A DNA stretch of 64,000 nt from Spirochaetia bacterium (GTDB taxonomy: Bacteria; Spirochaetota; Spirochaetia; UBA9216): the NCBI GenBank assembly GCA_965140585.1, contig OZ223264.1, forward strand, positions 864,001-928,000. Reading direction: 5' to 3'. A program made the position numbers and the translations under genes. Of this stretch, positions 9,098 through 45,753 are shown one piece after another. The notes beneath the pieces were generated by a model, which did no database searches, was not told where the DNA came from, and saw nothing but the letters and a program-made list of their open reading frames with translations. The stretch's first letter is position 1; each line of letters starts with the position of its first letter.

Positions 9098-10033
9098 GAA
9101 ATACTAAGGAGTGAATATCGTGACAAAGAAAAAGCCAGAAGGCATTTTTATCCCAATGGTGACTCCATTCAATGCATCTGATGAATCAATAGATTTTTCA
9201 GGTCTGAAGGAAGTGACTGAGTTTCTTGTAAAAAACGGAGTCGACGGGGTAATCCCCTCCGGAAGTACCGGCGAGTTTGTCGCAATGACAAAAGAAGAGC
9301 AGATGAAGGTCAATGCAGCGGTATGTGAATATGCAGCCGGAAGGATGAAGGTGTTCTGTTCAACAGGCGCTTACCGGACTGCTGATACAATTGAAATGTC
9401 ACAGAGTGCAGAAGCTGCCGGAGCGGATGGAGTAATGATAGTAACACCATGGTACATGGCGCCTAACGAGGAAGAGCTTTATGACCACTACAAAGCGATC
9501 AGGAAATCGATATCGATACCGGTAATGGTCTATCATAATCCGTACTATTCAACCTGTCTGATGACAGACGAGTTTATGGCCCGACTTTATAACGACGGAT
9601 TGATTGATGCAGTGAAGGAAAGACAGGCTGATGTCTACAGACAGCAGGATCTGAGAGCCTTGACCGATGACGGCTTCGGCATATTTTACGGATATGACAT
9701 CTGTCCGGTAGAGAGTGTTTCGATGTGGGCCGACGGCTGGGTATGCGGAACAGGAAACCTGTTTCCGAAAGAAAACAAGACTGTCTATGATCTTGCAAAG
9801 TCAAGGCAGATAGAAGAAGCCCAGAAATATCATTTTGAGAAAATTAGGCCGTATCTTCCCCTGTTTACTGAAAGTACATCAAAGGGACTGCCTTGTCCGT
9901 GGTTATCAGTGATAAAGGAAGGCCTTAAGCTTAGGGGCGTTAATGCGGGAGTTGCAAGGAAACCTGTAATGGAGCTTCCGGATGACGTGATGGTTAAACT
10001 GAAAAAAGTTTTAAAGGAATACGGGCATCTTTA
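9078..10033 (+). repeat. 956-bp direct repeat, copy 2
   Basis: Matches 2659-3614. Confidence 0.93.
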
Positions 10034-10034
10034 A
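9111..10034 (+). CDS. DHDPS/NAL family class I aldolase, copy 2 (identical protein)
   Basis: 307 aa identical to 2692-3615. Confidence 0.9.
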   Translation: MNIVTKKKPEGIFIPMVTPFNASDESIDFSGLKEVTEFLVKNGVDGVIPSGSTGEFVAMTKEEQMKVNAAVCEYAAGRMKVFCSTGAYRTADTIEMSQSAEAAGADGVMIVTPWYMAPNEEELYDHYKAIRKSISIPVMVYHNPYYSTCLMTDEFMARLYNDGLIDAVKERQADVYRQQDLRALTDDGFGIFYGYDICPVESVSMWADGWVCGTGNLFPKENKTVYDLAKSRQIEEAQKYHFEKIRPYLPLFTESTSKGLPCPWLSVIKEGLKLRGVNAGVARKPVMELPDDVMVKLKKVLKEYGHL

Positions 10035-13200: not shown

Positions 13201-14390
13201 GGCGCTTCTAAAAACTAAAGGAAATTCAATGAATTCAAAAATCTGATATGCTTTTACTTTTGGATGAATAAATGTCAAAGCAGAAAGGTTTTTTCATAGA
13301 AGATTTAAAGCTATCAGAATTATCACAGCACGGAGATCCCTTGCAGAGATTGAGTGCAATGATTCCATGGGAAAACTTTCGGCATAAATTAAATCGTATC
13401 TTTGTAAAAGAAGCAAAAGGCCCTGGAGGAATACCTCCATACGATTATGTGATGATGTTTAAAATCCTCGTATTACAGAGAATTTATAATCTATCCGATT
13501 CGCAAATGCAGTACCAGATCATGGATCGATTATCATTTATGAGATTTCTTGGTTTGAATCTTGATGACAAAGTACCCGATGAAAAAACAATCTGGCACTT
13601 TAGAGAAGAACTTGTTGAATCAAGGAAACTTGAAATACTATTTGAACAGTTCAGGAATTATCTGATAAAAGAAGGAATACTGCTTGAGTCGGGGACAATT
13701 GTCGATGCTTCTTTTGTTGAAGTACCAAAACAAAGAAATAATAAAGACGAAAATAAAGAGATAAAAGAGGGCGAAACTCCTAAAGAGTGGTCAGACAATA
13801 AATTAAGACAAAAAGATGTGGATGCAAGATGGGTAACAAAAGGCGGGCAACGCCATTATGGCTACAAAAATCACATAAAAATTTATCGTAAATCCAAGCT
13901 TATTAACAATTATGTAGTAACCAGTGCTGCAGTTCATGACTCGCAAGTAATAGAAGAAATTTTAGAAGAATCTGATTCGCATCATGAATTATATGCTGAT
14001 AGTGCTTATAGCGGAGCTCCAATAAAAGAAATATTGTCGGAATTGAAAATCAGGAACCGGATACATGAAAAAGGCTATCGAAATAGCCCGTTAACTAAGA
14101 AACAAAAAGAGCGGAATCGAAAAAAGTCGAAGACGCGGGCGAGAGTAGAACATGTATATGGATTTATGGTTAATTCGATGCAAGGTGATTTTATCAGGTA
14201 CATAGGTCAGAAAAGAGCTGAAGCAGTGATAGGATTAAGTAACCTTGTTTATAATATGATGAGGTATATCCAGATATGTTCTGCATGAGCTGGGTAGATT
14301 GATGGATGAGGAATGTATCGACATGCCGGTACAATGATAAAAAAGCTGATGATGTTTAATACAGCATAGCTGAAGGTTTTTAGAGGCGCC
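13201..14390 (+). mobile_element. IS5-family insertion sequence
   Basis: 15-bp terminal inverted repeats GGCGCTTCTAAAAAC (13201-13215) and GTTTTTAGAGGCGCC (14376-14390), one mismatch, around a single transposase. Target duplication is ambiguous (TAA possible if the ends lie 2 bp further out). Confidence 0.9.
13272..14288 (+). CDS. IS5-family DDE transposase
   Basis: PPYD..MMFKILVLQ..YNLSD, DRLSFMRFLGL, VPDEKTIW.FRE, IVDAS, KDVDARW, GYKNH, ADSAY, RARVEH. Confidence 0.93.
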   Translation: MSKQKGFFIEDLKLSELSQHGDPLQRLSAMIPWENFRHKLNRIFVKEAKGPGGIPPYDYVMMFKILVLQRIYNLSDSQMQYQIMDRLSFMRFLGLNLDDKVPDEKTIWHFREELVESRKLEILFEQFRNYLIKEGILLESGTIVDASFVEVPKQRNNKDENKEIKEGETPKEWSDNKLRQKDVDARWVTKGGQRHYGYKNHIKIYRKSKLINNYVVTSAAVHDSQVIEEILEESDSHHELYADSAYSGAPIKEILSELKIRNRIHEKGYRNSPLTKKQKERNRKKSKTRARVEHVYGFMVNSMQGDFIRYIGQKRAEAVIGLSNLVYNMMRYIQICSA

Positions 14391-30419: not shown

Positions 30420-30722
30420 TCATCCTCCGCCGAGCAGAACCTTGAAGATAATCTTCTCACCATCTGAAACTTCAGTCCTGTCCAGTGCATAGGGGCCGAT
30501 CACCTCACCCATATACTCGGTTTTAATCGGATGCCGCATCATTTTCCTGTTATGATCGAATATTTTATCCCAAAGTTCCGGAGTCTCTTTATAAAGACTG
30601 GTAATAATATCAGCGATTGAGTCTCCTGAATTAAACTTGGTTTTTACAGTATAGGGGCCGGGTTTTTCTGTCTGAAAGTGATAGGAAAGAGGCGGATAAA
30701 TCTGAACTTCGGCTTTAGGCAT
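30420..30722 (-). CDS. MoaD/ThiS-like ubiquitin-fold protein
   Basis: 100 aa ending V.DGEKI.....GGG; GGAG RBS. Confidence 0.65.
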   Translation of the reverse strand: MPKAEVQIYPPLSYHFQTEKPGPYTVKTKFNSGDSIADIITSLYKETPELWDKIFDHNRKMMRHPIKTEYMGEVIGPYALDRTEVSDGEKIIFKVLLGGG

Positions 30723-30823: not shown

Positions 30824-32053
30824 ATGAACAGACCTACATATTTAAATATACTTATGGCTGCTACATTTCTATTCAGCCTGGCAACCGGAATGGTTAGTTT
30901 TGCAATTGTTTTTTACGTAAAGCAGCGTTTTGATGCTGATCATACTATGATAGGTATGATTACTTCAGGACAAACTCTTTTCTATATAATAGGAGTTCTT
31001 GCTTTTTCCCTTAATAAAAATACGCATCCAAGGTATTTTCTCGGTTTTTCCGCCCTTGGTATGGCTGTATTGTTAACTGTCTACCAGATTTTTCCATACT
31101 GGCGTCTCACCCTTATTTGCGGATGTCTGTACGGACTCTTTATGGCTCTTTTCTGGCCGCGAATTTCAGGCTGGGTATCCTGGGGTCTTGAGGGTAATAA
31201 CCTGAGTAAAACCATGTCCCAGTATAATTTTTCGTGGTCTACTGGGGGAATTATTGCTCCGGCAGTCAGTGGTTTTCTTACCGAGCGAAATATTGTTCTA
31301 CCATTTATTTCAACTATATTTATGCTGCTGTTTATAGGACTGCTTCTTTTTATATTTTCACGTATCTATCCGGAAATGAGAAAGGGGCAGGCGGAAATCA
31401 GAAAAGCAAGAGTAAAGGCTCTGGAAGTGGGTGAAGAACCTGCCGATACAGATCCGGAAATCGGAACCACTCAGATGACTCCGCTCAGGTTTCCTGCGAG
31501 GCTTGGTGTGATTTCGACCTTTGTAATTTCCGGGATGATAGTTTTTATTTTTCCGGCATATATGAGGGAAAGTCTTGGCTACCGGGAAGGGATAATCGGT
31601 TTTTTCCTTCTGTTCAGACAGATCTTTTCAACTGCGGGCTTTATTCTCTGGGGGAAATGGAAGGGCTGGCATTTTAAGCCGCGACTGATTCTTTTTAATC
31701 AGATACTCACTGTACTGACACTTGCCCTGCTTATGGTATCCAGGACTCCTGCAGCCCTGCTTGTTTTCTTCGGTGTGATGGGATTTAATCTCAGCTTTTC
31801 CTATACTCTGGGACAGTTTTACGGAGCAACCGGAAGTACCAACCGGGAACGCAGTATGGCTATGCATGAGGGAGTGATTAACCTGGGAATAATTGTAGGA
31901 ACGTTCTTCGGCGGAATAATCAGTGACGGGAAGGGCATGTCTGTGACGCTTTTTTCTTTCCTTATTGTCTGCACTGCCTTGCTAATCGCCCAGTTCATTC
32001 TTTTGAGATATTTTAAGAAAAAAGGACTTCTTGTATTTGTAGACATGGTATGA
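30824..32053 (+). CDS. MFS transporter
   Basis: Two 6-TM halves with a central hydrophilic loop; ATG 30824 preferred over TTG 30782. Confidence 0.82.
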   Translation: MNRPTYLNILMAATFLFSLATGMVSFAIVFYVKQRFDADHTMIGMITSGQTLFYIIGVLAFSLNKNTHPRYFLGFSALGMAVLLTVYQIFPYWRLTLICGCLYGLFMALFWPRISGWVSWGLEGNNLSKTMSQYNFSWSTGGIIAPAVSGFLTERNIVLPFISTIFMLLFIGLLLFIFSRIYPEMRKGQAEIRKARVKALEVGEEPADTDPEIGTTQMTPLRFPARLGVISTFVISGMIVFIFPAYMRESLGYREGIIGFFLLFRQIFSTAGFILWGKWKGWHFKPRLILFNQILTVLTLALLMVSRTPAALLVFFGVMGFNLSFSYTLGQFYGATGSTNRERSMAMHEGVINLGIIVGTFFGGIISDGKGMSVTLFSFLIVCTALLIAQFILLRYFKKKGLLVFVDMV

Positions 32054-32054
32054 T

Positions 32055-32921
32055 GTGAAGAGTATGAAGCTCCAGCATTACTATCTTTTTCACAGGGAGA
32101 ATCTCTATAAGGACGATATCTCATCAATTACCCTTCTTGGTGATCTGGTATGCACCCCTGACTACTACCGGGAACCGCATCATCACAGTGAGGATATTGA
32201 AATCTGCCTGATAACTGCCGGAAAAGGAAGCTTTATAATAGAAGATACCGAATATAAAGTGAAACAGGGAGACCTGTTTTTTGCCATGCCTTACCAGGTT
32301 CATCATTCAATTGCTGATCCCCACGATCCATACCGGATGTATTATCTTGCCTTTCGACTCTTTGATGATCCGGTATATAAAAAACTTTATGACGAGATGT
32401 CACATGTTACACAGCACGTGTTTACCGATCAATTCAACCTGCCTCAATATTTCAGTGCACTTATTGAAGAAGTTCTGAATAATTTTACAGCCAGAAACAA
32501 GGCTATTGAAAGTCTGTTTCATTCTATCGTTATTTTTCTTCACCGTAACTGCCTGGTCGATAAGGCAGGAATAGTCCGGGAATACAGCAGCAAGCAGCTT
32601 CTTATCCAGAAGATTACGACATACATCGATTCTAATATACACCAGAAATTCTACCTCGATGACATAGCAAATGAACTGGGCTACTCCTCATACTACATCA
32701 GCCGTGTTTTTAAAGAGCAGATGGATATGCCGCTTTCGGGATACTGGAACAGGGCCAAGATCCTGAGAGCCCGATACCTGCTTAAAAATAATCCTGAAAT
32801 GACGCTGCTTGAGGCTTCTGAACGGGTCGGTATCGATGACTATCACTACTTTTCAAGACTATACAAGCAGATTACCGGACTTTCACCCACAGCCGACCGC
32901 AAAATAATCCAAGAAACCTGA
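32055..32921 (+). CDS. AraC family regulator with N-terminal cupin sensor
   Basis: HHH..IEI...G.G, GDLFF..P..H; YISRVFKE, YFSRLYKQITG.SP. Confidence 0.9.
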   Translation: MKSMKLQHYYLFHRENLYKDDISSITLLGDLVCTPDYYREPHHHSEDIEICLITAGKGSFIIEDTEYKVKQGDLFFAMPYQVHHSIADPHDPYRMYYLAFRLFDDPVYKKLYDEMSHVTQHVFTDQFNLPQYFSALIEEVLNNFTARNKAIESLFHSIVIFLHRNCLVDKAGIVREYSSKQLLIQKITTYIDSNIHQKFYLDDIANELGYSSYYISRVFKEQMDMPLSGYWNRAKILRARYLLKNNPEMTLLEASERVGIDDYHYFSRLYKQITGLSPTADRKIIQET

Positions 32922-33011
32922 CAAAACAGTCTAACGACAACCCGCAGATCCTGAACGATAATTAAACTAAATAATGAAATAATTGTTAAGAATGCAGTCC
33001 GGAGGCGAGGT

Positions 33012-34874
33012 ATGAGCGAAATAGAGGTGTGGAAGGATCTTATAGGGGATGCCGATTCCGGCAATTCTGTTTATATAAACAGGGTTAGAAAATGCTTCAC
33101 TGATATGGACAATAAGCAGACTGTGAATATAAGCCTGCTTTTAACTGCTCTTGAAGGTGAAAACCGCTCACGCTTTGATATAATTCTGCCGGATCCCGAA
33201 GCAGTGGAATCTGAGTTGGCAGATCTATCCCGCCGTTATCTGTACGCTGAAGTCTATAATATCCTTTCGTCACTTGGCGGCAGAATGCTTGAGATCTTCT
33301 ATGACAAGGCAAACCGCAGCCTTGATGCTCTGTGCTCCTCACTTGATGAGGCCTTCGGCATCAGTTTAAGCCGGAAAGACAGGCCTGGTTACGGCAGATG
33401 CGTAAATGTAATTGACCGCATGCTTGCCGCCCTTTCTTCAGATAATGAGCGTTTCAGTTTTGTTTATTCGGATATCAGCACTCTCGGTAATCCATCACCT
33501 GTATCTTCTGAATCCGGCAGAGAATCAGGGCTTGTTATATTCAGACGAGCTGTCGATGGCCTTGAGGGAAAGCTGCTCTGCGGAATTGATGTAGGCGGGA
33601 CCGATATCAAGCTGGCCGTTGTCTATGACGGACGGGTGATTGCTTTCAAAGAATACGACTGGTTTCCGGCTGTTTTTAAACAGTCGAAGCAGCTTGTTGA
33701 ACCTGTAGTCCTGCTTACAAGAATGCTCCGTAATATTTTCATACTTACTCATGTGCATGATAAAGTCCCGGTCGAGCTCAAGGTTCGAATTGCCGATGTT
33801 CTCAGACGCGAAGCTTCGGAGACGGAAATGTCTGTATTTTGTGATGATGCCGAATCCTTTCTGAAGGATCACATCATTAACTTTGACGGAATAGGCCTTT
33901 GCTTTCCTGATGTCGTAATCAGGGACAAGGTTGTAGGCGGTGAGGTCTACAAGACCAGAGGAATAAGGAATAACCCCGAGATAGATTATGAGGATGATTT
34001 TACAAGCCTTACGGATCTTAATGTGCGGCTTGAGCAGTACTGCTCAAAGCCCGGGGCTGTCAGCATGATAAATGACGGACCGATGGCGGCCTTCACTGCT
34101 GCCGTTGAAATGGCTGCTTCGGATAAGGCTCCGATGGTTGAAAAGGGTGTATTTGCCCATACTCTTGGAACAGAGCTTGGTACAGGCTGGGTCCGTGAGG
34201 ATGGTACAATACCTGATATACCGCTTGAAGTGTACAACTTTATAATCGATCTCGGATGTGTACCGGAACAGCAGTACCATCCGGACGATCTTAGAAGTGT
34301 GAATAATTTCAACACAGGGCTTTCCGGAACGCTTCAGAAATATACAAGCCAGAGCGGTGTCTTCAGGCTGGCGGTAAAATACTTTCCGGCAGAACGTCCC
34401 GACCTTTACAGGGAGCTTGAAGAAAAGGGCTATGTACAGGCTGTTCAGATTGACGGGGAAAGCAGACTGATTGTTCCAACTGAGCCGGAAGATATGAGAA
34501 AGGCTTTTCTTGAGCACATGATGATGCTTGCAGAAAGGGAAAAAGATGAAACCAACCGTAAAATCTGGCTTGAAATTGGTTCTGCACTTGGAGTCACCTG
34601 GATTGAAACCGAACGTATCCTGCACCCGGCTGCAAAAACGCGGTTTCAGTTCGGCCGTCTTGTTAAACGGAAGGTTTGCTATGACCTTCTTCTGGAGGGA
34701 GCAAAAACAATTGTTCCGGAGATTGAGTTTGAAATAGCAGACTCAACTCTGGCCAATACAAGCCTTATGAAACAGCTTGAGGAGGATCGGGACTATACGG
34801 TTGCCCAGTTTGCACAGGCTGTTGGAGCAATTTATTATGCCAATGAATGCCTGACCGGAAAAGGCCTGGTATAA
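33012..34874 (+). CDS. Divergent ROK/ASKHA-fold sugar kinase-like protein with ~185-aa N-terminal extension
   Basis: GIDVGGTDIK phosphate-1 motif, GIGLCFPDVV, INDGPMAA, HTLGTELGTG, GTLQKYTS, AQAVGA. No Cys-rich zinc motif and no HTH recognised. Confidence 0.7.
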   Translation: MSEIEVWKDLIGDADSGNSVYINRVRKCFTDMDNKQTVNISLLLTALEGENRSRFDIILPDPEAVESELADLSRRYLYAEVYNILSSLGGRMLEIFYDKANRSLDALCSSLDEAFGISLSRKDRPGYGRCVNVIDRMLAALSSDNERFSFVYSDISTLGNPSPVSSESGRESGLVIFRRAVDGLEGKLLCGIDVGGTDIKLAVVYDGRVIAFKEYDWFPAVFKQSKQLVEPVVLLTRMLRNIFILTHVHDKVPVELKVRIADVLRREASETEMSVFCDDAESFLKDHIINFDGIGLCFPDVVIRDKVVGGEVYKTRGIRNNPEIDYEDDFTSLTDLNVRLEQYCSKPGAVSMINDGPMAAFTAAVEMAASDKAPMVEKGVFAHTLGTELGTGWVREDGTIPDIPLEVYNFIIDLGCVPEQQYHPDDLRSVNNFNTGLSGTLQKYTSQSGVFRLAVKYFPAERPDLYRELEEKGYVQAVQIDGESRLIVPTEPEDMRKAFLEHMMMLAEREKDETNRKIWLEIGSALGVTWIETERILHPAAKTRFQFGRLVKRKVCYDLLLEGAKTIVPEIEFEIADSTLANTSLMKQLEEDRDYTVAQFAQAVGAIYYANECLTGKGLV

Positions 34875-34887
34875 GGAGGAATCAGCA

Positions 34888-37278
34888 ATGAACAGCAATG
34901 ACAGAAGCAGATATGTAAAAGAAATAAAGGGTCTGGACTTATCAGGACGGATAGGAAAGTTAAAAGAATTGATGCTCGATGAACCGCGTTATCTTTCCAT
35001 AGAACAGGCCCTGATTGTTACCTCTGTTTACAAGAAAAATGAGGATAAACCGGTAGAAATTAAACGGGCTATGGCGCTAGCTGCAGCCCTCGAAAAGATT
35101 GATATAAGAATTGATGTAGGTGAGCTTATAGTTGGAAACCGCACCGCAGGTGTCCGGGCCGGAGTTGTTTCTCCTGATGCAGGAATTTCCTGGATAGACC
35201 GTGAAATAGAGCATCTGCACGACCGGCCACAGGACCGCTTTAATGTTCACCCTGAAGATATTGAATTGTTCAGAAAAGAGATTTTGCCCTACTGGAAGGG
35301 CAGGAGTCTTGAAGATCTTATTTACAGCAGTATCGGGGACGAGGTTTCGGCTATCGGTAAGGTTGCAAAGATAAACCAGAAAGATCACGCCCAGGGCCAT
35401 ATATGCCCGGATACTGAAAACTGGATTGCCAGAGGGCCTGCAGGGCTGCTTGAAGAAGCAAGGCTTAATGCCATGAATGCTTCCGATAAAAACAGGAATT
35501 TTTATACAGCAGTCGAAACTGTACTTACTGGCACTATCAGTTTTATTCTCCGTTATGCGGATGAGGCTGAGAGGCTGGCCTCTGAAGCTTCCGATGGAAA
35601 GATTAAGGCTGATTTTGCAGAAGTTGCACGAATCTGCCGTAAACTTGCATCTGAACCGGCTGGCAGCTTTCATGAGGCGCTTCAGTCTATGTGGTTTCTG
35701 TATGTAATACTTCAGATGGAATCAAATGCCTCATCCTTCTCTCCCGGCCGCGCCGATCAGTATCTCTACCCCTACTGGAAAAAGGATATGGACAAGGGTG
35801 ATATTGATTACGCACGATCTCTTGAACTGGTTGAGGCGCTCTGGCTGAAGTTTAATCAGATTGTATACCTGCGTAATTCAGGGAGTGCCCGCTACTTCGC
35901 CGGATTCCCAATAGGGTTTAATGTAGCTCTGGGCGGACAGACCTCTTCCGGTGAGGACTCATCCAATGAGCTTTCGTTCCTGTTTCTGAAGGCGCAGGAA
36001 CATATCGGCCTTCCCCAGCCGAACCTCTCTGCCAGGCTGTTCAAGGGCAGTCCCGATGACCTGGTTGATGAGTGTGCCAGGGTAATAGGGAAGGGCAGCG
36101 GAATGCCCCAGATCTTCAATGATGAAAGCATTATCCTGGCACTGATGAACCAGGGGATTGAACCCGATGATGCCAGAAATTACGCTATTGTCGGCTGCGT
36201 TGAGCTAACGACTCACGGCAACAACCTTGGCTGGAGTGATGCCGCGATGTTTAATCTGAACAAGGCTCTGGAACTTACGCTCAACAACGGCATCTGTCTT
36301 TTAACCGGTGATAAAATCGGTATGGACCTCGGTTCACTTGCTGATTATAAAACCTATGAAGAGCTGGAGGCTGCGTATACAAAGCAGCTTGATTATTTTA
36401 TAGACCGGATGATGCTGATGTGCGATCGGGTTGACCGTTTTCATGCAGAGGTTGTCCCCTCGGCGTTTCTGTCCTCTGTGATCGATAACTGCCTGGAAAA
36501 GGGAGTGGATGTCACTGCGGGAGGAGCCCGCTACAACCTGTCAGGTATTCAGGCCATCCAGGTAGCAAACCTTGCCGACAGCTTTGCAGTAATCAAGAAG
36601 CTTGTTTATGATGAAAAAAGCGTAAGCGGTGAGCAGCTGCTGAAAGCACTTCAGACCAACTGGGAATCCGACGAGGTTCTCAGGCAGAGAGTTCTCAACA
36701 GGGTTCCGAAATATGGAAATGATGAAGAATGGGTTGATGCAATAGGCGCCAAATGGGTTAATTACTTTGCCGGCCGTATGGGAGAGTTTACCAATGCCCG
36801 CGGCGGCCGATATCATACCGGTTTGTATACAGTTTCGGCCCATGTCCCGATGGGGCAGAATGTAGGAGCATCACCGGACGGGCGCCTTGCAAAGGATCCA
36901 CTTGCAGACGGAGGCATGTCGGCAATGTACGGCCGCGACATCGAGGGCCCCACAGCCCTGCTGAAGTCTGTATCAAGAATACCCGCAGCCTGCGGAAGCA
37001 ACGGAACCCTGCTTAATATGAAATTCCTTCCGGAGTTTTTTCATACTGAGGACGGCATCAGAAAGTTCAACGGCTTTCTGAGAACCTTCGTCCGGCTGAA
37101 TATAAACCACATCCAGTTCAACGTTCTGCGGAAGGAAGACCTGATAGCCGCCAGGGAGACTCCCGAGAAGTACCGGAGCATGACTGTCCGTGTAGCCGGC
37201 TATACAGCCTATTTTACCGAGCTTGCCGGCGACCTCCAGGAGGAGATAATAGCCCGTACAAGCTACGGTGATGCATAG
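34888..37278 (+). CDS. pflD: Glycyl radical enzyme, PflD clade
   Basis: Single-Cys loop GCVE and glycyl loop RVAGY. Blocks RPQDRF, INQ.D..QGH, ESNASS.S.GR.DQY, SARYFAGFP, LPQPNL, PQIFNDE and YTVSAHVP match E. coli PflD as recalled. Confidence 0.85.
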   Translation: MNSNDRSRYVKEIKGLDLSGRIGKLKELMLDEPRYLSIEQALIVTSVYKKNEDKPVEIKRAMALAAALEKIDIRIDVGELIVGNRTAGVRAGVVSPDAGISWIDREIEHLHDRPQDRFNVHPEDIELFRKEILPYWKGRSLEDLIYSSIGDEVSAIGKVAKINQKDHAQGHICPDTENWIARGPAGLLEEARLNAMNASDKNRNFYTAVETVLTGTISFILRYADEAERLASEASDGKIKADFAEVARICRKLASEPAGSFHEALQSMWFLYVILQMESNASSFSPGRADQYLYPYWKKDMDKGDIDYARSLELVEALWLKFNQIVYLRNSGSARYFAGFPIGFNVALGGQTSSGEDSSNELSFLFLKAQEHIGLPQPNLSARLFKGSPDDLVDECARVIGKGSGMPQIFNDESIILALMNQGIEPDDARNYAIVGCVELTTHGNNLGWSDAAMFNLNKALELTLNNGICLLTGDKIGMDLGSLADYKTYEELEAAYTKQLDYFIDRMMLMCDRVDRFHAEVVPSAFLSSVIDNCLEKGVDVTAGGARYNLSGIQAIQVANLADSFAVIKKLVYDEKSVSGEQLLKALQTNWESDEVLRQRVLNRVPKYGNDEEWVDAIGAKWVNYFAGRMGEFTNARGGRYHTGLYTVSAHVPMGQNVGASPDGRLAKDPLADGGMSAMYGRDIEGPTALLKSVSRIPAACGSNGTLLNMKFLPEFFHTEDGIRKFNGFLRTFVRLNINHIQFNVLRKEDLIAARETPEKYRSMTVRVAGYTAYFTELAGDLQEEIIARTSYGDA

Positions 37279-37290
37279 GAAGCCGTTTTA

Positions 37291-38043
37291 TCAGCCGCCC
37301 ATATGCTGCGGGGTAAGCGATTCAAGCTCTATGCCCCTGTTCACTGCTTCTGCTGCATCTGTCAGGATAGCGGCGGTTGCAGTGGCTCCGGCCCGTATTA
37401 CACCGATTGAGCGGACGTAAAGAAGGTCTTTCAGGGTTCTGACTCCGCCTGCAGCCTTTATCTGAATGCTGCTGTCTGTGTTCGCCCGCATCAGTTTCAG
37501 ATGAGCTTCGGTGGCGCCCTTGTAGGTGTAGAATCCGTTGTCCTGTTTTACAAATCCGTAGCCGGTACTTGTTTTTACAAAGGCAGGTTTAACTTCACTG
37601 CAGATCCGGCAGAGCTGAATTATCGTTTCATCATCAAGATAATCGTTCTCAAAAATCACTTTCAGATACGCGCCACCGGTTACCGCAGCCTCATTAACAG
37701 CGGCAATTTCATCTTTTACAAAGCTCCATTCTTTGCCCAGGGCCTTGCCGATATTTATTACCATGTCAATTTCTGCAGCTCCATCGGCACATGCTCGGGC
37801 TGTTTCAGCAACCTTGATTTCAGTACTGCTGTTTCCATGGGGGAAGCCGATTACAGTTCCGACGGCCACATCTGTGTCCGCAAGTATTTCAACCGCGAGT
37901 GAAACTGCATACGGCTTGATGCATACCGATGCGGTATCATAATTTGCTGCAACTTCGCATTCTTTTCTTAGTATTTCATCAGTCATTGTCGGGTGAAGCA
38001 GTGAGTGGTCTATCATCTTTGCCAGATCTTTTACACTTATCAT
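37291..38043 (-). CDS. deoC: Deoxyribose-phosphate aldolase family
   Basis: IDHSLL.P, TVIGFPHG, EIDMVINIG, KVIFE, FVKTSTG, IKAAGGVRT. Confidence 0.9.
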   Translation of the reverse strand: MISVKDLAKMIDHSLLHPTMTDEILRKECEVAANYDTASVCIKPYAVSLAVEILADTDVAVGTVIGFPHGNSSTEIKVAETARACADGAAEIDMVINIGKALGKEWSFVKDEIAAVNEAAVTGGAYLKVIFENDYLDDETIIQLCRICSEVKPAFVKTSTGYGFVKQDNGFYTYKGATEAHLKLMRANTDSSIQIKAAGGVRTLKDLLYVRSIGVIRAGATATAAILTDAAEAVNRGIELESLTPQHMGG

Positions 38044-38213
38044 CTATATCCTCCGGTATAGTATTAATAATATCGGTACTCTTTTAAATCGAGAATGTGC
38101 AGACAGGAAAATGGCATATCAATTCGGGCAAAACGGGTTATAATGAGTTGATGGTTGCCGAGATAAATAATTTTTACAGAAAAGACTATGTTCGCAGAGC
38201 CGGTGTTGTGGAT

Positions 38214-39020
38214 ATGTATAAGGAGATAAAGCCGTCTTTTCTTGATTTTCACAGAATGACGGTCAGCAGGGATTATGAATATCCGGGACATCAGCATGAA
38301 AATTATGAGCTTATCTGGGTTGAGCACGGACCCTATATGTTCAGTCTCAATCATCAGGAGCTTGAAATAAGAAATAATATGTTTGTTGTAATCAAGCCCG
38401 GTGATCTTCATCAGGATCATCTGAAAAAAGGTCAGTCTCACTTTGTACTCCATTTTTCTCTCAACGAACCACTTTTTTCTCCCCTGGTAACAGCTCCGGA
38501 GCAGATAGGTGCTTCGATCCTTGACGGAGCTGCGAGTATCCTGAATGATATGGAGCAGGAAGCCTCTGTTTCAGGAAATACCGACCGCTTTTCCGGAGCT
38601 CTTCAGGATTCCCTGTTGGAAACCCTCTTCTGGCACATCGCGAGAATTTTGCCTGAAACATCCCTGTCTGAGGTGTTTAGAAATTATTCAGACCGGCAGC
38701 TTTTTGTTTCCAGACTGTATTCTGTTTTCAAAGAAAAACTGAATCAACCGTTGGGAGTTGAAGAGATAGCCGGGAAAATGGGCATTTCAAAAAGGGCATT
38801 GTCGATGAAATGCAGTGAGTACCTCAACAGTTCACCGGCCCGGCTGTATCTGGAATCACGATTTCAGAAGGCGGAGACTCTTCTGAGGCATAGTGATAAA
38901 ACAGTTAAAGAAATAAGTATTGAGCTGGGATTTGATTCTCCGTTTAACTTTACACGTGCATATAAGCGGGTGAGGGGCCTTACACCTTCCGAGTTCAGGG
39001 AACTGAATGATTTTTCCTGA
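38214..39020 (+). CDS. AraC family regulator with cupin sensor, divergent from deoC
   Basis: HQH..YELI, PGDLHQD, ISIELGF.SPFNFTRAYKR..G.TPSEFR. Start uncertain (the frame is open from 38097). Confidence 0.85.
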   Translation: MYKEIKPSFLDFHRMTVSRDYEYPGHQHENYELIWVEHGPYMFSLNHQELEIRNNMFVVIKPGDLHQDHLKKGQSHFVLHFSLNEPLFSPLVTAPEQIGASILDGAASILNDMEQEASVSGNTDRFSGALQDSLLETLFWHIARILPETSLSEVFRNYSDRQLFVSRLYSVFKEKLNQPLGVEEIAGKMGISKRALSMKCSEYLNSSPARLYLESRFQKAETLLRHSDKTVKEISIELGFDSPFNFTRAYKRVRGLTPSEFRELNDFS

Positions 39021-39045: not shown

Positions 39046-40011
39046 TTAAAGAAGCGCTGAACTCTTTCTTTTGATTATCTCCCTGGCCGTTGCTTCATCG
39101 GTTATCAGAGATTTTATATAATTCTGCGAGGCTGCGCTTATTATTGCATCAGCCTTTCGCATCCCGCTGGCGATTGCTATAACGTTCGGAATCTGCTGCA
39201 GCGTTTCAAGATCCATACTGGTCATCATATAATTTTCAGGCATTTTGAGTATTTCGTGATCATCGTAGAATACATGACCAAGCAGATTCCCGTGCGGTTT
39301 AGAAAAAGCCCTGCTTGTATCGATTTCCCTGCCAAAAAAAGATACCTCTTCCAGATATGGATAATCAATATTCAGGGGGCCTCCCACTGAAAGCACCACT
39401 GTATCAAGCTGACTGTATGACTGAAGCAGTTCCTTATGCCGGTTAAGGTCCAGATCCGTCATCAGGTTGCGGTTAATGCAGATTGGAAAGTTGTTGTAAT
39501 GACATGCTCCACCGAACGGCCTTGCAAATGAGTCAAGAAGCACTCCTGCCTGGAGGTAGGTATTGTCTGTTCCGGAGGTTCCGACTATAGAGTAAAAATC
39601 AGGAGGCTGAGGGAGACTTTGTTTTGTAAGCTGTGAAGCGGTGTGATACAGGGTTTTCCCGAGACCGATACCTATACGTCTGCTTTTGAGCAGTACCTCT
39701 TCAAGACGCCGGGCGGCAAAAAAATACATTGATTCATCCGGATTCCCTTCAGAGGACAGACTGGGGGCGATAAATACATCTGCAAGGTTCAGTGAAGAGC
39801 ATAACTGTTCAGACAATGTTTCCAGATCCTGATCTTCAGGGGCTGCAATTTTTATGCTGACAAAGCCCAGCTCTCTCGCCATTTTAAGGATCCGTGAAAT
39901 CTGGGATCTGTGAATATTCTCTTTATCAGCTATTTCCTGCTGGCTCAGACGATCAAGATAGTAATCCTTTGCAATCCTGAGTATTACCATCTTGTCAACG
40001 TTCAGCGTCAT
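39046..40011 (-). CDS. SorC/DeoR(Bs)-type sugar-binding transcriptional regulator
   Basis: IAKDYY...SQQEIA....HRSQISRIL..ARE.G.V.I.I; IGIGLGKTL; IAIASG.RK..AI, LITDE.TA. Confidence 0.9.
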   Translation of the reverse strand: MTLNVDKMVILRIAKDYYLDRLSQQEIADKENIHRSQISRILKMARELGFVSIKIAAPEDQDLETLSEQLCSSLNLADVFIAPSLSSEGNPDESMYFFAARRLEEVLLKSRRIGIGLGKTLYHTASQLTKQSLPQPPDFYSIVGTSGTDNTYLQAGVLLDSFARPFGGACHYNNFPICINRNLMTDLDLNRHKELLQSYSQLDTVVLSVGGPLNIDYPYLEEVSFFGREIDTSRAFSKPHGNLLGHVFYDDHEILKMPENYMMTSMDLETLQQIPNVIAIASGMRKADAIISAASQNYIKSLITDEATAREIIKRKSSALL

Positions 40012-40052
40012 CAGCGCTCCTTAATGTGCAATCCGGATTTGAAATCTTATAA

Positions 40053-40180
40053 TCACATTTGTGACTTGTCAAGCTTGGATGGAATTCAGTCTTTTATCCT
40101 GAAAGTTTTAATTGACTTGTGCAGGATGTTGATTTATTATTTTGATAAATTGAAATAACATATGTGAATCACAAATGTGA
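40053..40180. promoter_or_regulatory. Three palindromic T(C/A)ACA-WW-TGTGA boxes in the divergent promoter
   Basis: TCACATTTGTGA 40053-40064, TAACATATGTGA 40156-40167, TCACAAATGTGA 40169-40180. Confidence 0.6.
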
Positions 40181-40241
40181 ATAGCTGCAACACTAAATAA
40201 CAGCAGCAAAACAGGGAGAAGATTAAAAACGGGAGTGGGGT

Positions 40242-41096
40242 ATGCAGGAGAAACTAAGCAGTACGGAGGTTCTTGGTGAACCTCTGTTTATAAGCAGATC
40301 TTCAAAAATTTATAAGTGGAAAGAAAACCAGCTGATAAAACTTTTTAATGAAGAAATTGAATCTGAACTGATTGATAATGAAGAGATAAACTCGAAGGAG
40401 ACTTTTTCCAGGGGAATCTCGAGTGTTAAATGTTACGGCCAGATAAGTGTAGGAACGCAGACCGGGCTGATAATAGAAAAAATACCGGGAATGCCTCTGA
40501 TAAGTCTTGCAGGGGCAAAGCCCCTTACAGCCTTTAATGTCCCCAAGCTTATGGTTCAGCTGCAGCTTGCGATGCATGAAACTCATACTGAAGTAATTAG
40601 AAGCTATAAGGATATGGTCAGAGAGGCCCTGAAGTCTGAACCCCTGGATTTTCTTACGGTTACTGAAAGGACTATGGTTGATAAGCTGCTTCAGAACCTT
40701 CCTGATGGAAGCTCGATACTTCATCTTGATTTTCATCCTGATAATATAATGTCTGATACAAAAGCAACCTCGATAATTGACTGGATGACCGCAGCGCGGG
40801 GGGTGCCGGCCGCTGATGTTGCTGCAACTCTCTTTCTCCTTAATGAATGTGAAATGATTCCCGGTTTTAACAGGATTACAGCAGCGGTCCTTGAAGGAAT
40901 CAGAAAAACCATCTGCAGAAATTATCTGAAGCAGTACAAAAAGGCTTCGGGGATATGTGATGAAGAAATTACATGCTGGAGGCTTCCATTCATGATTGTG
41001 CGGCTGGGCCTCTGGAACATTGAAAGTGAGCGTGAAACCTTGCAGCAGAAAATTAAAGTTGCCATTCTGGAAATAAACGAACTGGAGTGTAAATGA
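40242..41096 (+). CDS. APH/choline-kinase-fold small-molecule phosphotransferase
   Basis: IKLF, LH.DFHPDNI, IIDW..A..G.PAADVA. Confidence 0.8.
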   Translation: MQEKLSSTEVLGEPLFISRSSKIYKWKENQLIKLFNEEIESELIDNEEINSKETFSRGISSVKCYGQISVGTQTGLIIEKIPGMPLISLAGAKPLTAFNVPKLMVQLQLAMHETHTEVIRSYKDMVREALKSEPLDFLTVTERTMVDKLLQNLPDGSSILHLDFHPDNIMSDTKATSIIDWMTAARGVPAADVAATLFLLNECEMIPGFNRITAAVLEGIRKTICRNYLKQYKKASGICDEEITCWRLPFMIVRLGLWNIESERETLQQKIKVAILEINELECK

Positions 41097-42322
41097 CTGA
41101 AAATCAGGAAACCGCGGAAAGTCTTCTGGATTACAGCGGACGACTTAAGACCGCAGGAATGGATCTGGATAATTCCGTTATTGCAGCACGATTTAACGGC
41201 GGTCAGTTTCTTATTCTTGAAAATGGTGGGGAGAATGCTGAGGTTTTAACAAGGGTAGAGCTCCTTCGAAGGCATCCTGCTGTTTATGGAATATTCCGCC
41301 GGAGCCGGAAGGTTAGTGCTGTAATCAGAGGCGCGTCAAAGTTCTGTTCGGTTGCTGCTGAGGCCGGGGGAAGAATCCCGCCGGTTCTTGATGATATGGC
41401 ACAGATTCTCGGAGTCTATGTAAAACACTGTTCTCCTTTTAATACATTTCGGCTGCTTCGAATCACAGGCGGTAACGGCGCATGTCTGACCGGTCCTTCA
41501 AAGGGACTGGCACCGGGGCTTCTGGCTGTCGGAGCCGATCTGCGCACAGCCTACACTGCAGCACTTGTGATTGAGAAGGCGGCACAGGTACATGTTCAGG
41601 CCGGACAGCTTGGGGATGCTAAACCTCTGCCGCTGATTGAAGCAATGCTGATGCATTTCGCATATAAACTGGCCTATTCAAAAAAGGCGGCGGCAGTTAA
41701 ACATCAGAGTGTATCTGATATCGATAGAAAAATTGACCAGGATGAGCTGAAGCTGCGCCGTGAGATCATAAGTCTTGGAAACCGGCTGGTGGAAAGTAAT
41801 CTTGTGCAGGGAACCTGGGGGAATATTTCAGTACGGCTTGATGAGGACTATATGCTCTGTACACCTTCCGGAATGGATTACTCTACGATCAATGAATACG
41901 ACATTGTCAGGGTTAATATCAGCACTCTGGAATATGAGGGAGCTGTGAAGCCAACCGGTGAAAAATCGTTTCATGCAGCCCTTCTTGCTGCACATCCGGA
42001 TGTCAGCTGTATTATTCACAGCCATCCGTCAAACTGCAGTGTTTTTGCCGCTGCACATAAACAAATCATTCCGTTTGATCTGGAAAGCGCTGCTCTGCTT
42101 GGCGGGGAAATAAGGCTTGCTGAATACGGACTGCCCTCATCAAAAAGGCTGTCGGATAATGTTGTTTCTGCCATTCGGGAAAATAGAGCCTGCGTGATGG
42201 AGAATCACGGCATGGTAGTCTGCGGAACAGATATGGAAGACGCTTTTGCAAAGTGCAGAGCAGCCGAGAAAAGTGCCGAAGAGCAGCTGAAGTCTCTGGA
42301 AAAGGAAAAAATTATTGTATGA
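41093..42322 (+). CDS. Class II aldolase/adducin protein with two tandem domains
   Basis: C-domain has GNISVR, TPSG, PTGE..FH, IIHSHP and ENHG. The N-domain keeps the fold pattern (H..IFR..V.AVI, LDDMAQI, A....EKAA) but lacks the HxH and NHG zinc ligands. Confidence 0.82.
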   Translation: MTENQETAESLLDYSGRLKTAGMDLDNSVIAARFNGGQFLILENGGENAEVLTRVELLRRHPAVYGIFRRSRKVSAVIRGASKFCSVAAEAGGRIPPVLDDMAQILGVYVKHCSPFNTFRLLRITGGNGACLTGPSKGLAPGLLAVGADLRTAYTAALVIEKAAQVHVQAGQLGDAKPLPLIEAMLMHFAYKLAYSKKAAAVKHQSVSDIDRKIDQDELKLRREIISLGNRLVESNLVQGTWGNISVRLDEDYMLCTPSGMDYSTINEYDIVRVNISTLEYEGAVKPTGEKSFHAALLAAHPDVSCIIHSHPSNCSVFAAAHKQIIPFDLESAALLGGEIRLAEYGLPSSKRLSDNVVSAIRENRACVMENHGMVVCGTDMEDAFAKCRAAEKSAEEQLKSLEKEKIIV

Positions 42323-44100
42323 GCAGTATCAGTAAAATCCGCAGAAAGATAAATGAAATTTCTCCGGATATAAAAATATCTGAGGTAAGGAACTGCATAG
42401 TTCTGGAAGGTGAGGTTGACAGCTGGGAAACCGTTGTAAAGGCAGGGCAGGCTGCGGTAGATAAAAAGCATTATCTTGGTGTGATTAATAATATAAATCT
42501 TAAAAATTTTACACAGCAGCGGATACTTCCCGAAGTAAATGATTATGAACTTGATGGGCTCAAAACGGATGTTCTGATAATCGGAGGCGGAATTACCGGC
42601 TGTTCCATTGCGCGCGAACTTTCAAGATACAAACTGAATGTAATTCTTGTCGAGAAGGGTGAGGATGTCGCTGTAGGGGCCTCCAGAGCCAACGGCGGGG
42701 TTGTCCATGTCGGTATTAACTTTTCCAGAAAATCACAGAAGCACTATTACAATATCAGAGGAAACAGAATGTACGCAGGGCTTTCGAAAGCCCTTGATGT
42801 TCCATTTGAGCAGGAAGGACAGATAATGCTCTGCAGCAAAAACTGGGAGCGCCTTCCTGTTTTCCTTCTGAGGCTGAATGCAAAACTTCTCGGCATTCCC
42901 GGCGTTAAATATCTAAAAAGGGAAGAGCTTAAAAAATATGAGCCAGAGCTTCCTGATTTTGCAATAGGCGGAATGTATATGCCTATAGGCGGTATAACAA
43001 ATCCTTATGAGATGACCGTTGCACTGGCCGAGAATGCTGTTTCAAACGGAGTCCGGCTGAGCCTCAATACTGTTGTTACCGGCATGACGGTGGGTGATGG
43101 TAAAATTAAAAGCGTCCTCACAAACCGGGGCAGAATGTACCCTCGGCTTGTGATAAATGCGGCCGGTGTCTATTCGGATGAAATTGCTGAGATGGCGGGT
43201 GACAGAACCTTCACAATTCATCCGAGACGGGGCACTAATATAATTACCGATAAAAAAGCCGGTTACATGGTCAGATCAAGTATGGGTAAATCACCCTTCA
43301 GTATTCTTCCTTACCAGGAGGCTGATAAACCCAAGGGGCTGAAAAAGCGTATCCGTTTTTTCCTCGATACAATAACCAGTAAAAGCCATACGAAGGGTGT
43401 GGGGCTTATTCATTCTGTTCATGGAAATATGCTTATCGGTCCAAACGCTGTAGAGACTCCCGATCGGGAAAATACGGCTACAAACAGAGCTGAAGTTGAA
43501 TCTATAATAAACATGCAGCAGCATATAGCCGTAGACTTAAAATACTCCGATATCATCGCATATTTTACCGGTGTCCGTGCAGCGACATATGAAGAGGATT
43601 TTGTGGTGAGAAAGGGGATATTCACAAAGAATATTCTGCAGGCTGCCGGTATTCAGTCGCCCGGAATTACTGCTGCGCCTGCTATTGCAGTTGATATCTG
43701 TAAATGGGCAATTGATTTTTTCGGCGGCGGAACAGAGCTCAAAAAAGAAGACCAATACAGTATGAGCCGCAAAGCAAAACTAAAACTTTCGGAAATCAGT
43801 GATGAGGAACGAGATGCTCTTATAAAGAAAAATCCTGATTATGGAATCATAGTCTGCCGCTGTGAGGAAGTCAGCCGAGGCGAAATTATTGACGCTCTAA
43901 ATTCCCCGCTTTGTGTCCCTACACTTGACGGAATTAAGCGACGGCTTAGACCCGGAATGGGACGCTGCCAGGGCGGCTTTTGCTCACCGCTTATTACGCA
44001 GATTATAGCGGAGCATCAGGGAATAAGCCTTTCCGGAGTAAGAAAGGGCAGTCCGGGTTCTGTTGTAACTTTAGGAACGGTACAGGAGCTCGGTAAATGA
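42319..44100 (+). CDS. GlpA/LhgO-like FAD dehydrogenase with N-terminal BON-like and C-terminal BFD-like [2Fe-2S] domains
   Basis: IVLEGEV.SW..VVKAG.....GVINNI (BON-like), GGGITG, GASRANGGVVH, INAAG, GIQSPG, VCRCEEV..RPGMGRCQGGFC; ATG 42319 overlaps the aldolase stop. Confidence 0.85.
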   Translation: MSSISKIRRKINEISPDIKISEVRNCIVLEGEVDSWETVVKAGQAAVDKKHYLGVINNINLKNFTQQRILPEVNDYELDGLKTDVLIIGGGITGCSIARELSRYKLNVILVEKGEDVAVGASRANGGVVHVGINFSRKSQKHYYNIRGNRMYAGLSKALDVPFEQEGQIMLCSKNWERLPVFLLRLNAKLLGIPGVKYLKREELKKYEPELPDFAIGGMYMPIGGITNPYEMTVALAENAVSNGVRLSLNTVVTGMTVGDGKIKSVLTNRGRMYPRLVINAAGVYSDEIAEMAGDRTFTIHPRRGTNIITDKKAGYMVRSSMGKSPFSILPYQEADKPKGLKKRIRFFLDTITSKSHTKGVGLIHSVHGNMLIGPNAVETPDRENTATNRAEVESIINMQQHIAVDLKYSDIIAYFTGVRAATYEEDFVVRKGIFTKNILQAAGIQSPGITAAPAIAVDICKWAIDFFGGGTELKKEDQYSMSRKAKLKLSEISDEERDALIKKNPDYGIIVCRCEEVSRGEIIDALNSPLCVPTLDGIKRRLRPGMGRCQGGFCSPLITQIIAEHQGISLSGVRKGSPGSVVTLGTVQELGK

Positions 44101-45392
44101 AAACAACAGATGTTACAGTGATAGGCGGCGGTCCGGCCGGCCTTGCTGCGGCAATTGCCGCGGAGAAAAGCGGAGCCGCTGTACTTTTAATTGAAAGAGA
44201 AGCACGCCTTGGCGGCATCCTCAAACAGTGCATTCATGACGGATTCGGAATTGTTCGCTTTAAAGAGAAACTGACAGGTCCTGAATATGCTGAAAGGTTT
44301 ACCTGCGAGCTGCTGGAGCGCAGAATCGATACTATGGTTCTTACATTCGTTACCGCGATTGAGAAAAGGGAGGGCCTCTTCCATATTACTACAGTCAGCA
44401 GGGAAGGGGTGAGTGTCATCGCTTCAAAGACCATCATCCTTGCTACAGGATGCCGGGAGAGAACGGCCAGACAGGTTTTTATACACGGCACACGGCCCTC
44501 GGGAATTTTTACCGCCGGGACCGCACAGCATTACATCAACATCCTCGGTGAGATGCCCACAAAGCGCTGTGTGATTCTTGGAAGCGGAGACATCGGGCTG
44601 ATTATGGCACGCAGGCTGTCCCTGGAAGGAGCGGAGGTTATAGGCGTCTATGAGGCCAAGCCAACCCCTTCTGGGCTTACGCGCAATATTCATCAGTGCC
44701 TGAACGATTATGATATACCACTCCATCTTTCAAAGACTGTTACAAGGGTATTCGGAAATGAAAGGCTCACCGCCGTTGAGGTAAGTTCAGTGGATGAAAA
44801 GATGCAGCCTCTCTCCGGCACAGCTGAAATTATTGAATGCGATTCTCTTATTCTGTCTGTAGGTTTGATTCCGGAGAATGAACTGGCTGACAAGCTTGGA
44901 GTCCGGATAGATCCGCTTACCAAGGGCCCTCTATGCAATTCAAAGCTTATGACTTCTGTCGAAGCTGTTTTCGCCTGCGGCAACGCACTGCATGTAAACG
45001 ATCTTGTAGATTATGTTTCAGAGAGCGGTGAGTTTGCCGGGAAGGCAGCGGCTGAGTACAGTGCTGCCAGGCAGGAAGGGGCGGCTTGCTGTGATGCTGA
45101 ATCAACTGCAGTTGACATTAAACCGGCTGTTATTTCTCCAGGACAGGGGCTGGCCTATGTTGTACCACAGCGACTATCAGTTGATGATTCAGAAGAAGAG
45201 ACAGTTCTGTTTTTCAGAAGCCGTGAAATACTATCAGACTGTTTTCTTGTTATCAGGATAGACGGTGCAGAGGTCTTCCGTAAAAAGTACGGTTTTATGA
45301 AACCGCCGGAGATGGAAAGGCTTGAATACCGCTTCGGGCAGCATAATCTGCCCGCTCGTGCTCAAATCACTCTGGAAATTGAGGTAGCTTGA
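44097..45392 (+). CDS. FAD/NAD(P)-dependent oxidoreductase partner subunit (TrxB-like)
   Basis: GGGPAG, GGILKQCIHDGFG, LTGPEYA, ATGCRER, GSGDIGLIMARR, GNALHVNDLVDYVS. Confidence 0.87.
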   Translation: MKTTDVTVIGGGPAGLAAAIAAEKSGAAVLLIEREARLGGILKQCIHDGFGIVRFKEKLTGPEYAERFTCELLERRIDTMVLTFVTAIEKREGLFHITTVSREGVSVIASKTIILATGCRERTARQVFIHGTRPSGIFTAGTAQHYINILGEMPTKRCVILGSGDIGLIMARRLSLEGAEVIGVYEAKPTPSGLTRNIHQCLNDYDIPLHLSKTVTRVFGNERLTAVEVSSVDEKMQPLSGTAEIIECDSLILSVGLIPENELADKLGVRIDPLTKGPLCNSKLMTSVEAVFACGNALHVNDLVDYVSESGEFAGKAAAEYSAARQEGAACCDAESTAVDIKPAVISPGQGLAYVVPQRLSVDDSEEETVLFFRSREILSDCFLVIRIDGAEVFRKKYGFMKPPEMERLEYRFGQHNLPARAQITLEIEVA

Positions 45393-45393
45393 A

Positions 45394-45753
45394 ATGACTG
45401 AAATTGTATGTATTGAATGCCCGAAAGGCTGTATTTTGAAAATAGGCGGGGAGTCGGGTAAGCCTGATATCAGTGGATACAGCTGTCCAAGAGGAAAAGA
45501 CTTTGCTTTATCCGAGATAATTTCTCCAATGAGAACCCTCAGCTCTACAGTAAGGACCGTTTTTTCAGATACCCCGGTTGTCCCTGTGAAGGTCTCAGCC
45601 GAAATCCCCAAGTCAAGGATTTTTGATGTGATGCATGAAATTCACAAGGTAAGGCTGGGAAACCGGCTTGGTTCAGGTGATGTAGTGATCGGGAATGTCC
45701 TGGGACTTGGTGTTGAGGTTGTGCTCACGAGTAATATGCTCAGGGAGTTTTAG
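45394..45753 (+). CDS. DUF1667-family small Cys-rich subunit
   Basis: CIECPKGC, GYSCPRG, P.RTL.STV, PVK....IPK. Confidence 0.85.
   Translation: MTEIVCIECPKGCILKIGGESGKPDISGYSCPRGKDFALSEIISPMRTLSSTVRTVFSDTPVVPVKVSAEIPKSRIFDVMHEIHKVRLGNRLGSGDVVIGNVLGLGVEVVLTSNMLREF

Follow-up and report, generated by a model that had tools for sequence, protein, structure and literature searches.

A PflD-like glycyl radical enzyme and an unnamed family of kinase-like proteins form a conserved module in Spirochaetia

Introduction

Two branches of anhydroglycolysis have been described in Escherichia coli. The passages of PMC13450708 and PMC12441222 that deal with them assign frwCB-pflD-pflC-frwD, together with ptsA, fsaB and gldA, to the 1,5-anhydromannitol branch, and ybiY-ybiW-ybiV-ybiU, together with fsaA, to the 1,5-anhydroglucitol branch. 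The chemistry of the glycyl radical enzymes (GREs) PflD and YbiW, as set out in these passages, serves as the model for the steps proposed below, and the E. coli route then requires Fsa. GRE clades without a tested function are treated as a recognised gap in the relevant part of PMC13450708. Here we describe a PflD-like GRE of 796 aa and a 620-aa kinase-like protein, called KIN in the following, which are encoded side by side in 64,000 nt of DNA from a Spirochaetia bacterium. This whole stretch is referred to as the window.

A sequence-only reading of the window had proposed a sugar pathway that is independent of the phosphotransferase system (PTS) and linked to a ROK-like kinase, with a major facilitator superfamily (MFS) permease and a DeoC-family aldolase as members and a pentitol as a possible substrate. 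We find a real, conserved GRE–kinase module, which varies a pathway type already known and brings in a kinase family that has no name. The kinase link stood up to comparison with other genomes and the permease, the aldolase and the pentitol did not. On balance, KIN and the GRE probably make up a form of anhydroglycolysis fed by an ATP-dependent kinase, the substrate of which is likely to be 1,5-anhydromannitol or a close isomer. In the literature covered, on PflD and YbiW, anhydroglycolysis, GREs with DeoC, newer sugar GREs and GREs with ROK kinases, there is no account of the clade or of the kinase family; Ma et al. 2024, which lies outside that coverage, may show kinase-linked clusters, and PDB entry 9rco is an unnamed GRE of uncertain placement.

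The conserved unit

The surroundings of KIN were compared in 160 loci, made up of the 80 best of 277 found in GTDB genomes and the 80 best of 164 found in metagenomes, and a neighbouring GRE was counted as a clade member if it was at least 55% identical to that of the window. Such a GRE adjoins KIN in 97 of the 160 loci, and in 73 of the 96 that have at least 4 kb of upstream sequence. The commonest gene order is GRE-activase-KIN (88 loci), and an activase is present in 109. Other recurrent neighbours are an AroE-like dehydrogenase (55/160), the sugar-binding protein of one type of ATP-binding cassette (ABC) transporter (50/160), a YbiW-like GRE (28/160), a second ROK kinase (26/160) and a YbiU-like gene (8/160). 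deoC and the MFS gene are each found in a single locus, in both cases L008, the 94% identical sister locus.

Since these loci had been chosen by KIN, a second sample was drawn by GRE (E<=1e-250) from 401 genomes of the class. The clade is present in 36 of them, at 37 places, and is common in anaerobes of sediments and digesters. Six of the places overlap the KIN sample; KIN is present in all six, and deoC in the source genome (G000) and its sister (G001) only. The other 31 are further loci, some of them the same DNA as GTDB KIN loci, several on short contigs and with relatives that are not independent of each other; 29 include an activase and 10 include KIN, which brings KIN to 16 of the 37 places. 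An ordinary ROK kinase follows directly behind the GRE or its activase in nine of the 31, and a PfkB kinase lies upstream of the GRE in one. Ten also encode a YbiW-like GRE, and oxidoreductases of the RmlD-like (14), Gfo/Idh/MocA (11) and GMC (5) types recur, while deoC is found in none. Three more clade members came from a phylum-wide sample; KIN accompanies the first and a PfkB kinase the second, while the third lies on a short contig. KIN loci were found also in Bacillota, Planctomycetota and Chloroflexota.

Genes for PTS components EIIB and EIIC, sought with the E. coli FrwB and FrwC sequences as queries, are absent from all 160 KIN loci and all 31 GRE loci, and no protein of the source genome exceeds the cut-off for PF02378. 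The proposal of a PTS-independent, kinase-linked and PflD-like GRE is thus upheld. The predicted import by ABC transporters and phosphorylation by ATP kinases set these loci apart from the E. coli pflD system, as does the lack of Fsa and GldA: Fsa or a transaldolase is encoded in three of the 160 KIN loci and none of the 31 GRE loci. In one locus (L038), KIN stands beside a true PflD orthologue (68%), an activase and a YbiU-like gene, again with no PTS gene. The conserved unit is therefore GRE, activase and kinase, not MFS, kinase, GRE and DeoC; the co-occurrence expected by the sequence-only reading holds for KIN and this GRE clade and fails for deoC.

The glycyl radical enzyme

The GRE (34888-37278, plus strand) matches PF02901 (672 bits) and PF01228 (97 bits) and has the hallmarks of the family: a PFL-like barrel, a Cys loop and a C-terminal RVAGY glycine loop. 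C437, E439 and G771 are invariant in 81 of 81 clade sequences. Its best solved relatives are the PflD structures 8yjo and 8id0. It shares 42.5% identity with E. coli PflD and scores above the cut-off for the PFL2-3 subfamily. YbiW is more distant (33.7%), and its His281/Arg453-type motif positions are missing from the window enzyme.

In a FastTree phylogeny of 117 sequences, the GRE falls into a clade of its own with 81 members (support 0.91), outside the clade of E. coli PflD. The sister of this clade is a second unnamed group (1.0), which also has activase and ROK neighbours, followed by the PflD group (0.885). Two loci, L047 and L115, carry a second PflD-like GRE (44%) beside the clade member. 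These adjoining enzymes (L047:2951 and L115:236) have CVQ in place of the CXE motif. Four further loci (L214-L217, in G199, G173, G117 and G179) encode PflD-like GREs of an unnamed group that is sister to the window clade; they are 43-48% identical to the GRE of the window, have ESxGSS in place of ESNASS and lie beside activase and ROK genes.

Active-site positions were mapped by way of glycerol dehydratase numbering, which matches that of a Clostridium butyricum GRE 37.0% identical to the window enzyme. The dehydratase sites used include His281, Ser282, Arg325, Phe333, Tyr339, Asp447 and Tyr640. His164, Cys433 and Glu435 are given in the part of PMC13450708 that treats this enzyme. At ten positions mapped in this numbering (H171, S282, S283, R329, F337, G343, C437, E439, D451 and Y647), all 81 clade members are identical to PflD, and the same holds for V649 and H652. 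The GRE shares with the B12-independent glycerol dehydratase (1r8w) the fold family, the CXE loop and the His164 and Asp447 positions, but the two are only 37% identical, and the dehydratase sites His281, Tyr339 and Ser642 are Ser, Gly and Val, as in PflD. The branch, the CXE loop and the ten site positions are thus held in common with the E. coli pflD system. To judge by these residues, the GRE would work like PflD, yet it is no PflD orthologue.

The kinase-like protein

When the open reading frames (ORFs) of the window were searched against Pfam and NCBIfam (E<=0.01), KIN (33012-34874, plus strand) matched no family in either, PF00480 of the ROK kinases included, and a sequence search of the PDB gave nothing significant. 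Of 8,000 candidates that were scored, at least 1,273 are relatives, and none of the 120 relatives listed has a Pfam domain. In the ESM Atlas, unnamed clusters come first, followed by a 443-aa cluster, 38% of whose members have ROK.

The predicted structure is more informative. The model is confident (predicted local distance difference test, pLDDT, 91.9), and its best Foldseek matches are ROK kinases (E 1.3e-10). A VIA superposition of the model on NanK (2aa4) has a Z of 21.0 and a root-mean-square deviation of 2.7 over 283 aligned residues, and hhalign gives 97.5% for KIN against ROK. The ROK/ASKHA-like part spans residues 185-620, so the label "ROK-like" given from sequence is borne out by the predicted fold, though by no family model. 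The N-terminal ~170 aa are modelled at a pLDDT of 90; a fold search with this domain alone had a best Z of 5.2, too low for a clear match and no proof that the fold is new.

KIN has, like the ROK kinases NagK (7p7w), NanK (2aa4) and glucokinase (2qm1, 3vgk), a phosphate-1 motif, an Asn-Asp base pair, a GT motif and a sugar-binding Glu. The pertinent part of PMC10031466 names the NagK residues that serve in base catalysis and in the binding of metal, phosphate and 3-OH; their counterparts in KIN, D193, N354, D355, T387 and E406, are invariant (73/73), and T197 is kept in at least 90%. Unlike ROK kinases, KIN has the extra N-terminal domain of 170 aa and several insertions, lacks the Zn-binding cysteine motif, has Asn in place of His, and replaces the acid that contacts the sugar 1-OH by a Gln, Q442 (73/73). 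This residue aligns with the Glu of GCLE, the single protein that serves as the in-genome control. The 1-OH position is Met or Ile in all 12 readable sequences among 26 rows of island ROKs, and Ile in three readable slot ROKs, read by eye. Loss of the acid in the island ROKs would fit substrates without an anomeric hydroxyl, a supporting but not decisive sign.

A distant homologue of KIN (hhalign 90%) is a 466-aa ROK with an N-terminal extension of its own (L084:5951-7348), the gene of which immediately follows those of KIN and a third ROK in Bacillota loci that lack a GRE.

The distant island

No radical-SAM activase gene is present in the window, an absence that had not been remarked on earlier. 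A second half of the system lies about 145 kb from the pair, at G000:C1:748328-760810 (L088:4320-16829). This island encodes RmlD-like and AroE-like proteins, a YbiW orthologue (54%), an activase, an ABC importer, a ROK kinase without the 1-OH acid and a DeoR regulator, the same set of genes that surrounds GRE-activase-KIN in relatives. The YbiW orthologue is a point of likeness to the E. coli ybiW system, as are the YbiU-like genes of some KIN loci. In the sister genome the island activase is intact (306 aa), and in a tree it nests among activases that are encoded next to GREs of the clade, away from YbiY and PflC, the latter represented by a 232-aa truncated copy from E. coli. An apparently dedicated activase clade and a YbiW branch in the same islands recall the pflD system, while the separation of the pair from its activase is a difference found in this genus.

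How this separation arose is suggested by another genome, G005, the GRE of which is closest to that of the window in the tree. There the genes form the string AraC-activase-KIN-GRE (L206), and the AraC regulator at its head is 49% identical to the first AraC regulator of the window. These sequence relations suggest that an ancestral string of this kind lost its activase and so gave rise to the window pair, and they make the first AraC probably the regulator of the pair.

Local neighbours of the pair

The gene order originally read from the sequence agrees with the ORFs and the family searches. On the plus strand, the MFS permease (30824-32053; PF07690), the orthologues of which share the same start Met, is followed by the first AraC-family regulator (32055-32921), which has a cupin sensor and was identified by its Pfam match, and then by KIN and the GRE, the core members. 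deoC (37291-38043, minus strand) converges on the GRE, with 12 bases between the two stops. A second AraC regulator (38097-39020, plus strand; Pfam match), with an ATG at 38151 as a possible start, is divergent from deoC and is retained only in the sister genome. A promoter and terminator scan was uninformative (26 vs 18.0 +/- 4.6 and 11 vs 10.3 +/- 3.6).

The deoC product is a genuine member of its family by score (TIGR00126, 188 bits against a cut-off of 117), and its Schiff-base lysine motifs, VKTSTG and KAAGG, align with solved DERAs. It is one of three deoC paralogues in the genome. The eight closest relatives fetched (45-69%) lie in unrelated contexts with no GRE or KIN nearby. The MFS orthologues of G007 and G010 (76-77%) likewise stand alone, away from GRE islands, and a contig-end fragment in L065 failed the locus check, so that the permease was rejected as the importer of the pathway. 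deoC and the MFS gene are local neighbours in this genus and not conserved members of the module, contrary to the sequence-only reading.

A second deoC, with a short N-terminal extension, is part of a microcompartment locus with shell proteins and an aldehyde dehydrogenase (L090:4407-9757, G000:C5).

Candidate pathway and alternatives

Taking the linkage, the residues, the predicted folds and the absence of PTS genes from the loci as the starting point, the chemical steps and substrates can be proposed on the model of PflD and YbiW. The ABC importer of the island (G000:C1:748-761 kb) would take up the anhydro-hexitol, and KIN, in place of the PTS, would likely phosphorylate it at position 6 with ATP. 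The clade-matched activase of the island would activate the GRE in trans. A thiyl radical at C437 would then abstract a hydrogen, and ring opening by radical C-O cleavage, assisted by E439, would yield a 1-deoxy-ketose 6-phosphate. The island YbiW orthologue and the second ROK kinase may handle the gluco isomer in parallel. A manno configuration for the KIN substrate is hinted at by the neighbours of GRE-less KIN loci, since these include a phosphomannose isomerase in L064 and L082 and an AGE-family epimerase in L084 and L173.

Several observations weigh against this proposal. One concerns the step that would consume the GRE product, which is unaccounted for by the genes found. Fsa and transaldolase are as rare in the loci as described above, and the genome has no canonical Fsa, in line with the absence of Fsa that had been noted for the locus itself. 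The only transaldolase-family protein of the genome, of 358 aa (L095:1450-2526, G000:C2), carries Gln at the position of Gln59 but Phe at that of Tyr131; by the roles that the relevant part of PMC13259622 gives these residues in Fsa and transaldolase, this mixed pair would make it neither a canonical Fsa nor a canonical transaldolase. Another genome, G292, carries the trio of GRE, activase and KIN, and no TAL/FSA match was found in it. The kinase evidence has its own weak points. KIN occurs without a clade GRE in 23 of the 96 well-flanked loci, and in several GRE-less loci a second sugar kinase, Glk or ROK, adjoins it, which means that the first phosphorylation may fall to an enzyme other than KIN. 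The 1-OH sign is weak, because the 466-aa ROK relative also lacks the acid (it has Val) and a Gln could still bind a hydroxyl.

As for the GRE, it scores below the PRK09983 (PflD) equivalog cut-off (754.9 bits against 1,109), and the mapping of its active site takes from the PflD structure 8ID0 only the contacts of Cys431 and Glu433. Close to the mapped sites, all 81 clade sequences depart from PflD at seven positions (GRE/PflD: H167/K, Y327/L, I342/T, W449/L, S450/H, A452/I and Q558/G). The PflD motifs quoted in the sequence-only reading, TDKGQGH and GLHDIAMF, agree with the solved PflD, and of the differences it had pointed to, some are indeed fixed in the clade; the Lys of KDHAQGH does not characterise the clade, as the position is K in 39 and T in 42 of the 81 sequences. 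Finally, the activase, the binding protein and the ATPase of the island are frameshifted in the source assembly. About 25 mostly single-base insertions relative to the sister genome are confined to about 5 kb (L088:8980-13800), and contig pieces of run X1, at a depth of ~1-2, end at three of them, which is a hint only, X1 being possibly the source sample. The confinement of these insertions and the contig ends make a low-coverage assembly error the likelier cause.

A bolder proposal, which we regard as tentative, is that the GRE is a third radical sugar isomerase with a substrate of its own, supplied by kinases of a new family whose N-domain would be novel. Its deoxy-ketose phosphate product would be processed without Fsa, by the oxidoreductases of the AroE-like and RmlD-like types, or else by a DeoC recruited in this genus, and the whole would amount to a complete, undescribed anaerobic sugar pathway.

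Related to this, though doubtful, is a module with the same architecture and another chemistry, acting on the phosphate of a sugar that is not among the anhydro-hexitols of the E. coli pathway, such as a cyclitol, a sugar with substituents or one with a ring of different size, with oxidoreductases of the AroE-like, RmlD-like, Gfo/Idh/MocA or GMC types taking the place of the aldolase. The seven fixed differences point in this direction, as do the frequency of these oxidoreductases and the scarcity of aldolases in both samples, and the second PflD-like GRE of L047 and L115 suggests that there are several specificities in the branch. However, the ten mapped positions are those of PflD, KIN partners a true PflD in L038, and the YbiW branch of the same islands is also without an aldolase, so that the clade GRE is not alone in having this gap.

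The anhydro-hexitol route could also be closed locally. The adjacent DeoC would then replace Fsa and cleave the 1-deoxy-ketose phosphate into hydroxyacetone and glyceraldehyde-3-phosphate. A genome with three deoC paralogues and no canonical Fsa would have room for this, one DERA accepts dihydroxyacetone and glycolaldehyde as donors according to the relevant passage of PMC8097096, and close relatives of the DeoC occur in other sugar clusters (G006, G027). We consider it unlikely all the same: the donor promiscuity described in that passage belongs to another enzyme and comes with lower activity, no promoter is common to deoC and the pair, adjacency in two genomes is the sole support, and elsewhere the module occurs with neither Fsa nor an adjacent deoC, which means that some other solution exists.

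That the pair is a stranded relic, having lost its adjacent activase while the distant one is truly broken, is very unlikely. The window has no activase and the island copy is in pieces in the source genome, but the sister copy is an intact 306-aa activase, KIN and the GRE are both intact and 94% identical between the two genomes, and most of the breaks, all within a single patch of 5 kb, are insertions of one base, with X1 pieces ending at three.

The least likely explanation is the one first offered, in which KIN phosphorylates a pentitol or similar polyol, the GRE dehydrates it to 2-deoxyribose-5-phosphate and DeoC cleaves the product: although deoC lies 12 bp from the GRE stop, is kept in the sister genome and passes its family cut-off, and diol dehydration is established GRE chemistry in the part of PMC13450708 that covers it, deoC is present in one of 160 and none of 31 loci, is on the opposite strand with its own divergent regulator and has relatives in unrelated contexts, clade members without deoC share the same site residues, and nothing points to a pentitol, the context pointing to anhydro-hexitols instead. 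The dehydratase residues His281 and Tyr339 are moreover Ser and Gly in the GRE, as in PflD, and the route was rejected.

Other genes in the window

Upstream of the MFS gene and divergent from it, 30420-30722 (minus strand) encodes a 100-aa ubiquitin-like protein of the MoaD/SAMP type, with a GGG end and a weak match to SAMP1 (E 5e-4). On the other side, 39046-45753 adjoins the locus with a SorC/DeoR-type regulator divergent from an operon whose products include an APH-like kinase, a class II aldolase of 409 aa in two parts and a flavoprotein resembling glycerol-3-phosphate oxidase, along with partner proteins. This operon probably serves a separate, neighbouring sugar-phosphate pathway.

Further away, 2692-3615 and 9111-10034 have identical 307-aa translations. 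They lie 6.4 kb apart, flank an FAD oxidoreductase and an ABC transporter, and are either a duplication or an assembly artefact; by motif, they are DHDPS-like. The ORF at 13272-14288, in the part of the window with the lowest GC, is presumably transposase-like and stands beside what is presumably a Dam-like methylase, both labels being based on motifs.

Outlook

The GRE, its matched activase, the importer and the kinase-like proteins, an unnamed family with more than 1,200 members, form a set that can be tested, and the missing aldolase step points to one further enzyme. If the module indeed serves a kinase-fed anhydroglycolysis, the kinase family would gain a function, and anhydroglycolysis would extend beyond PTS-bearing gut bacteria.

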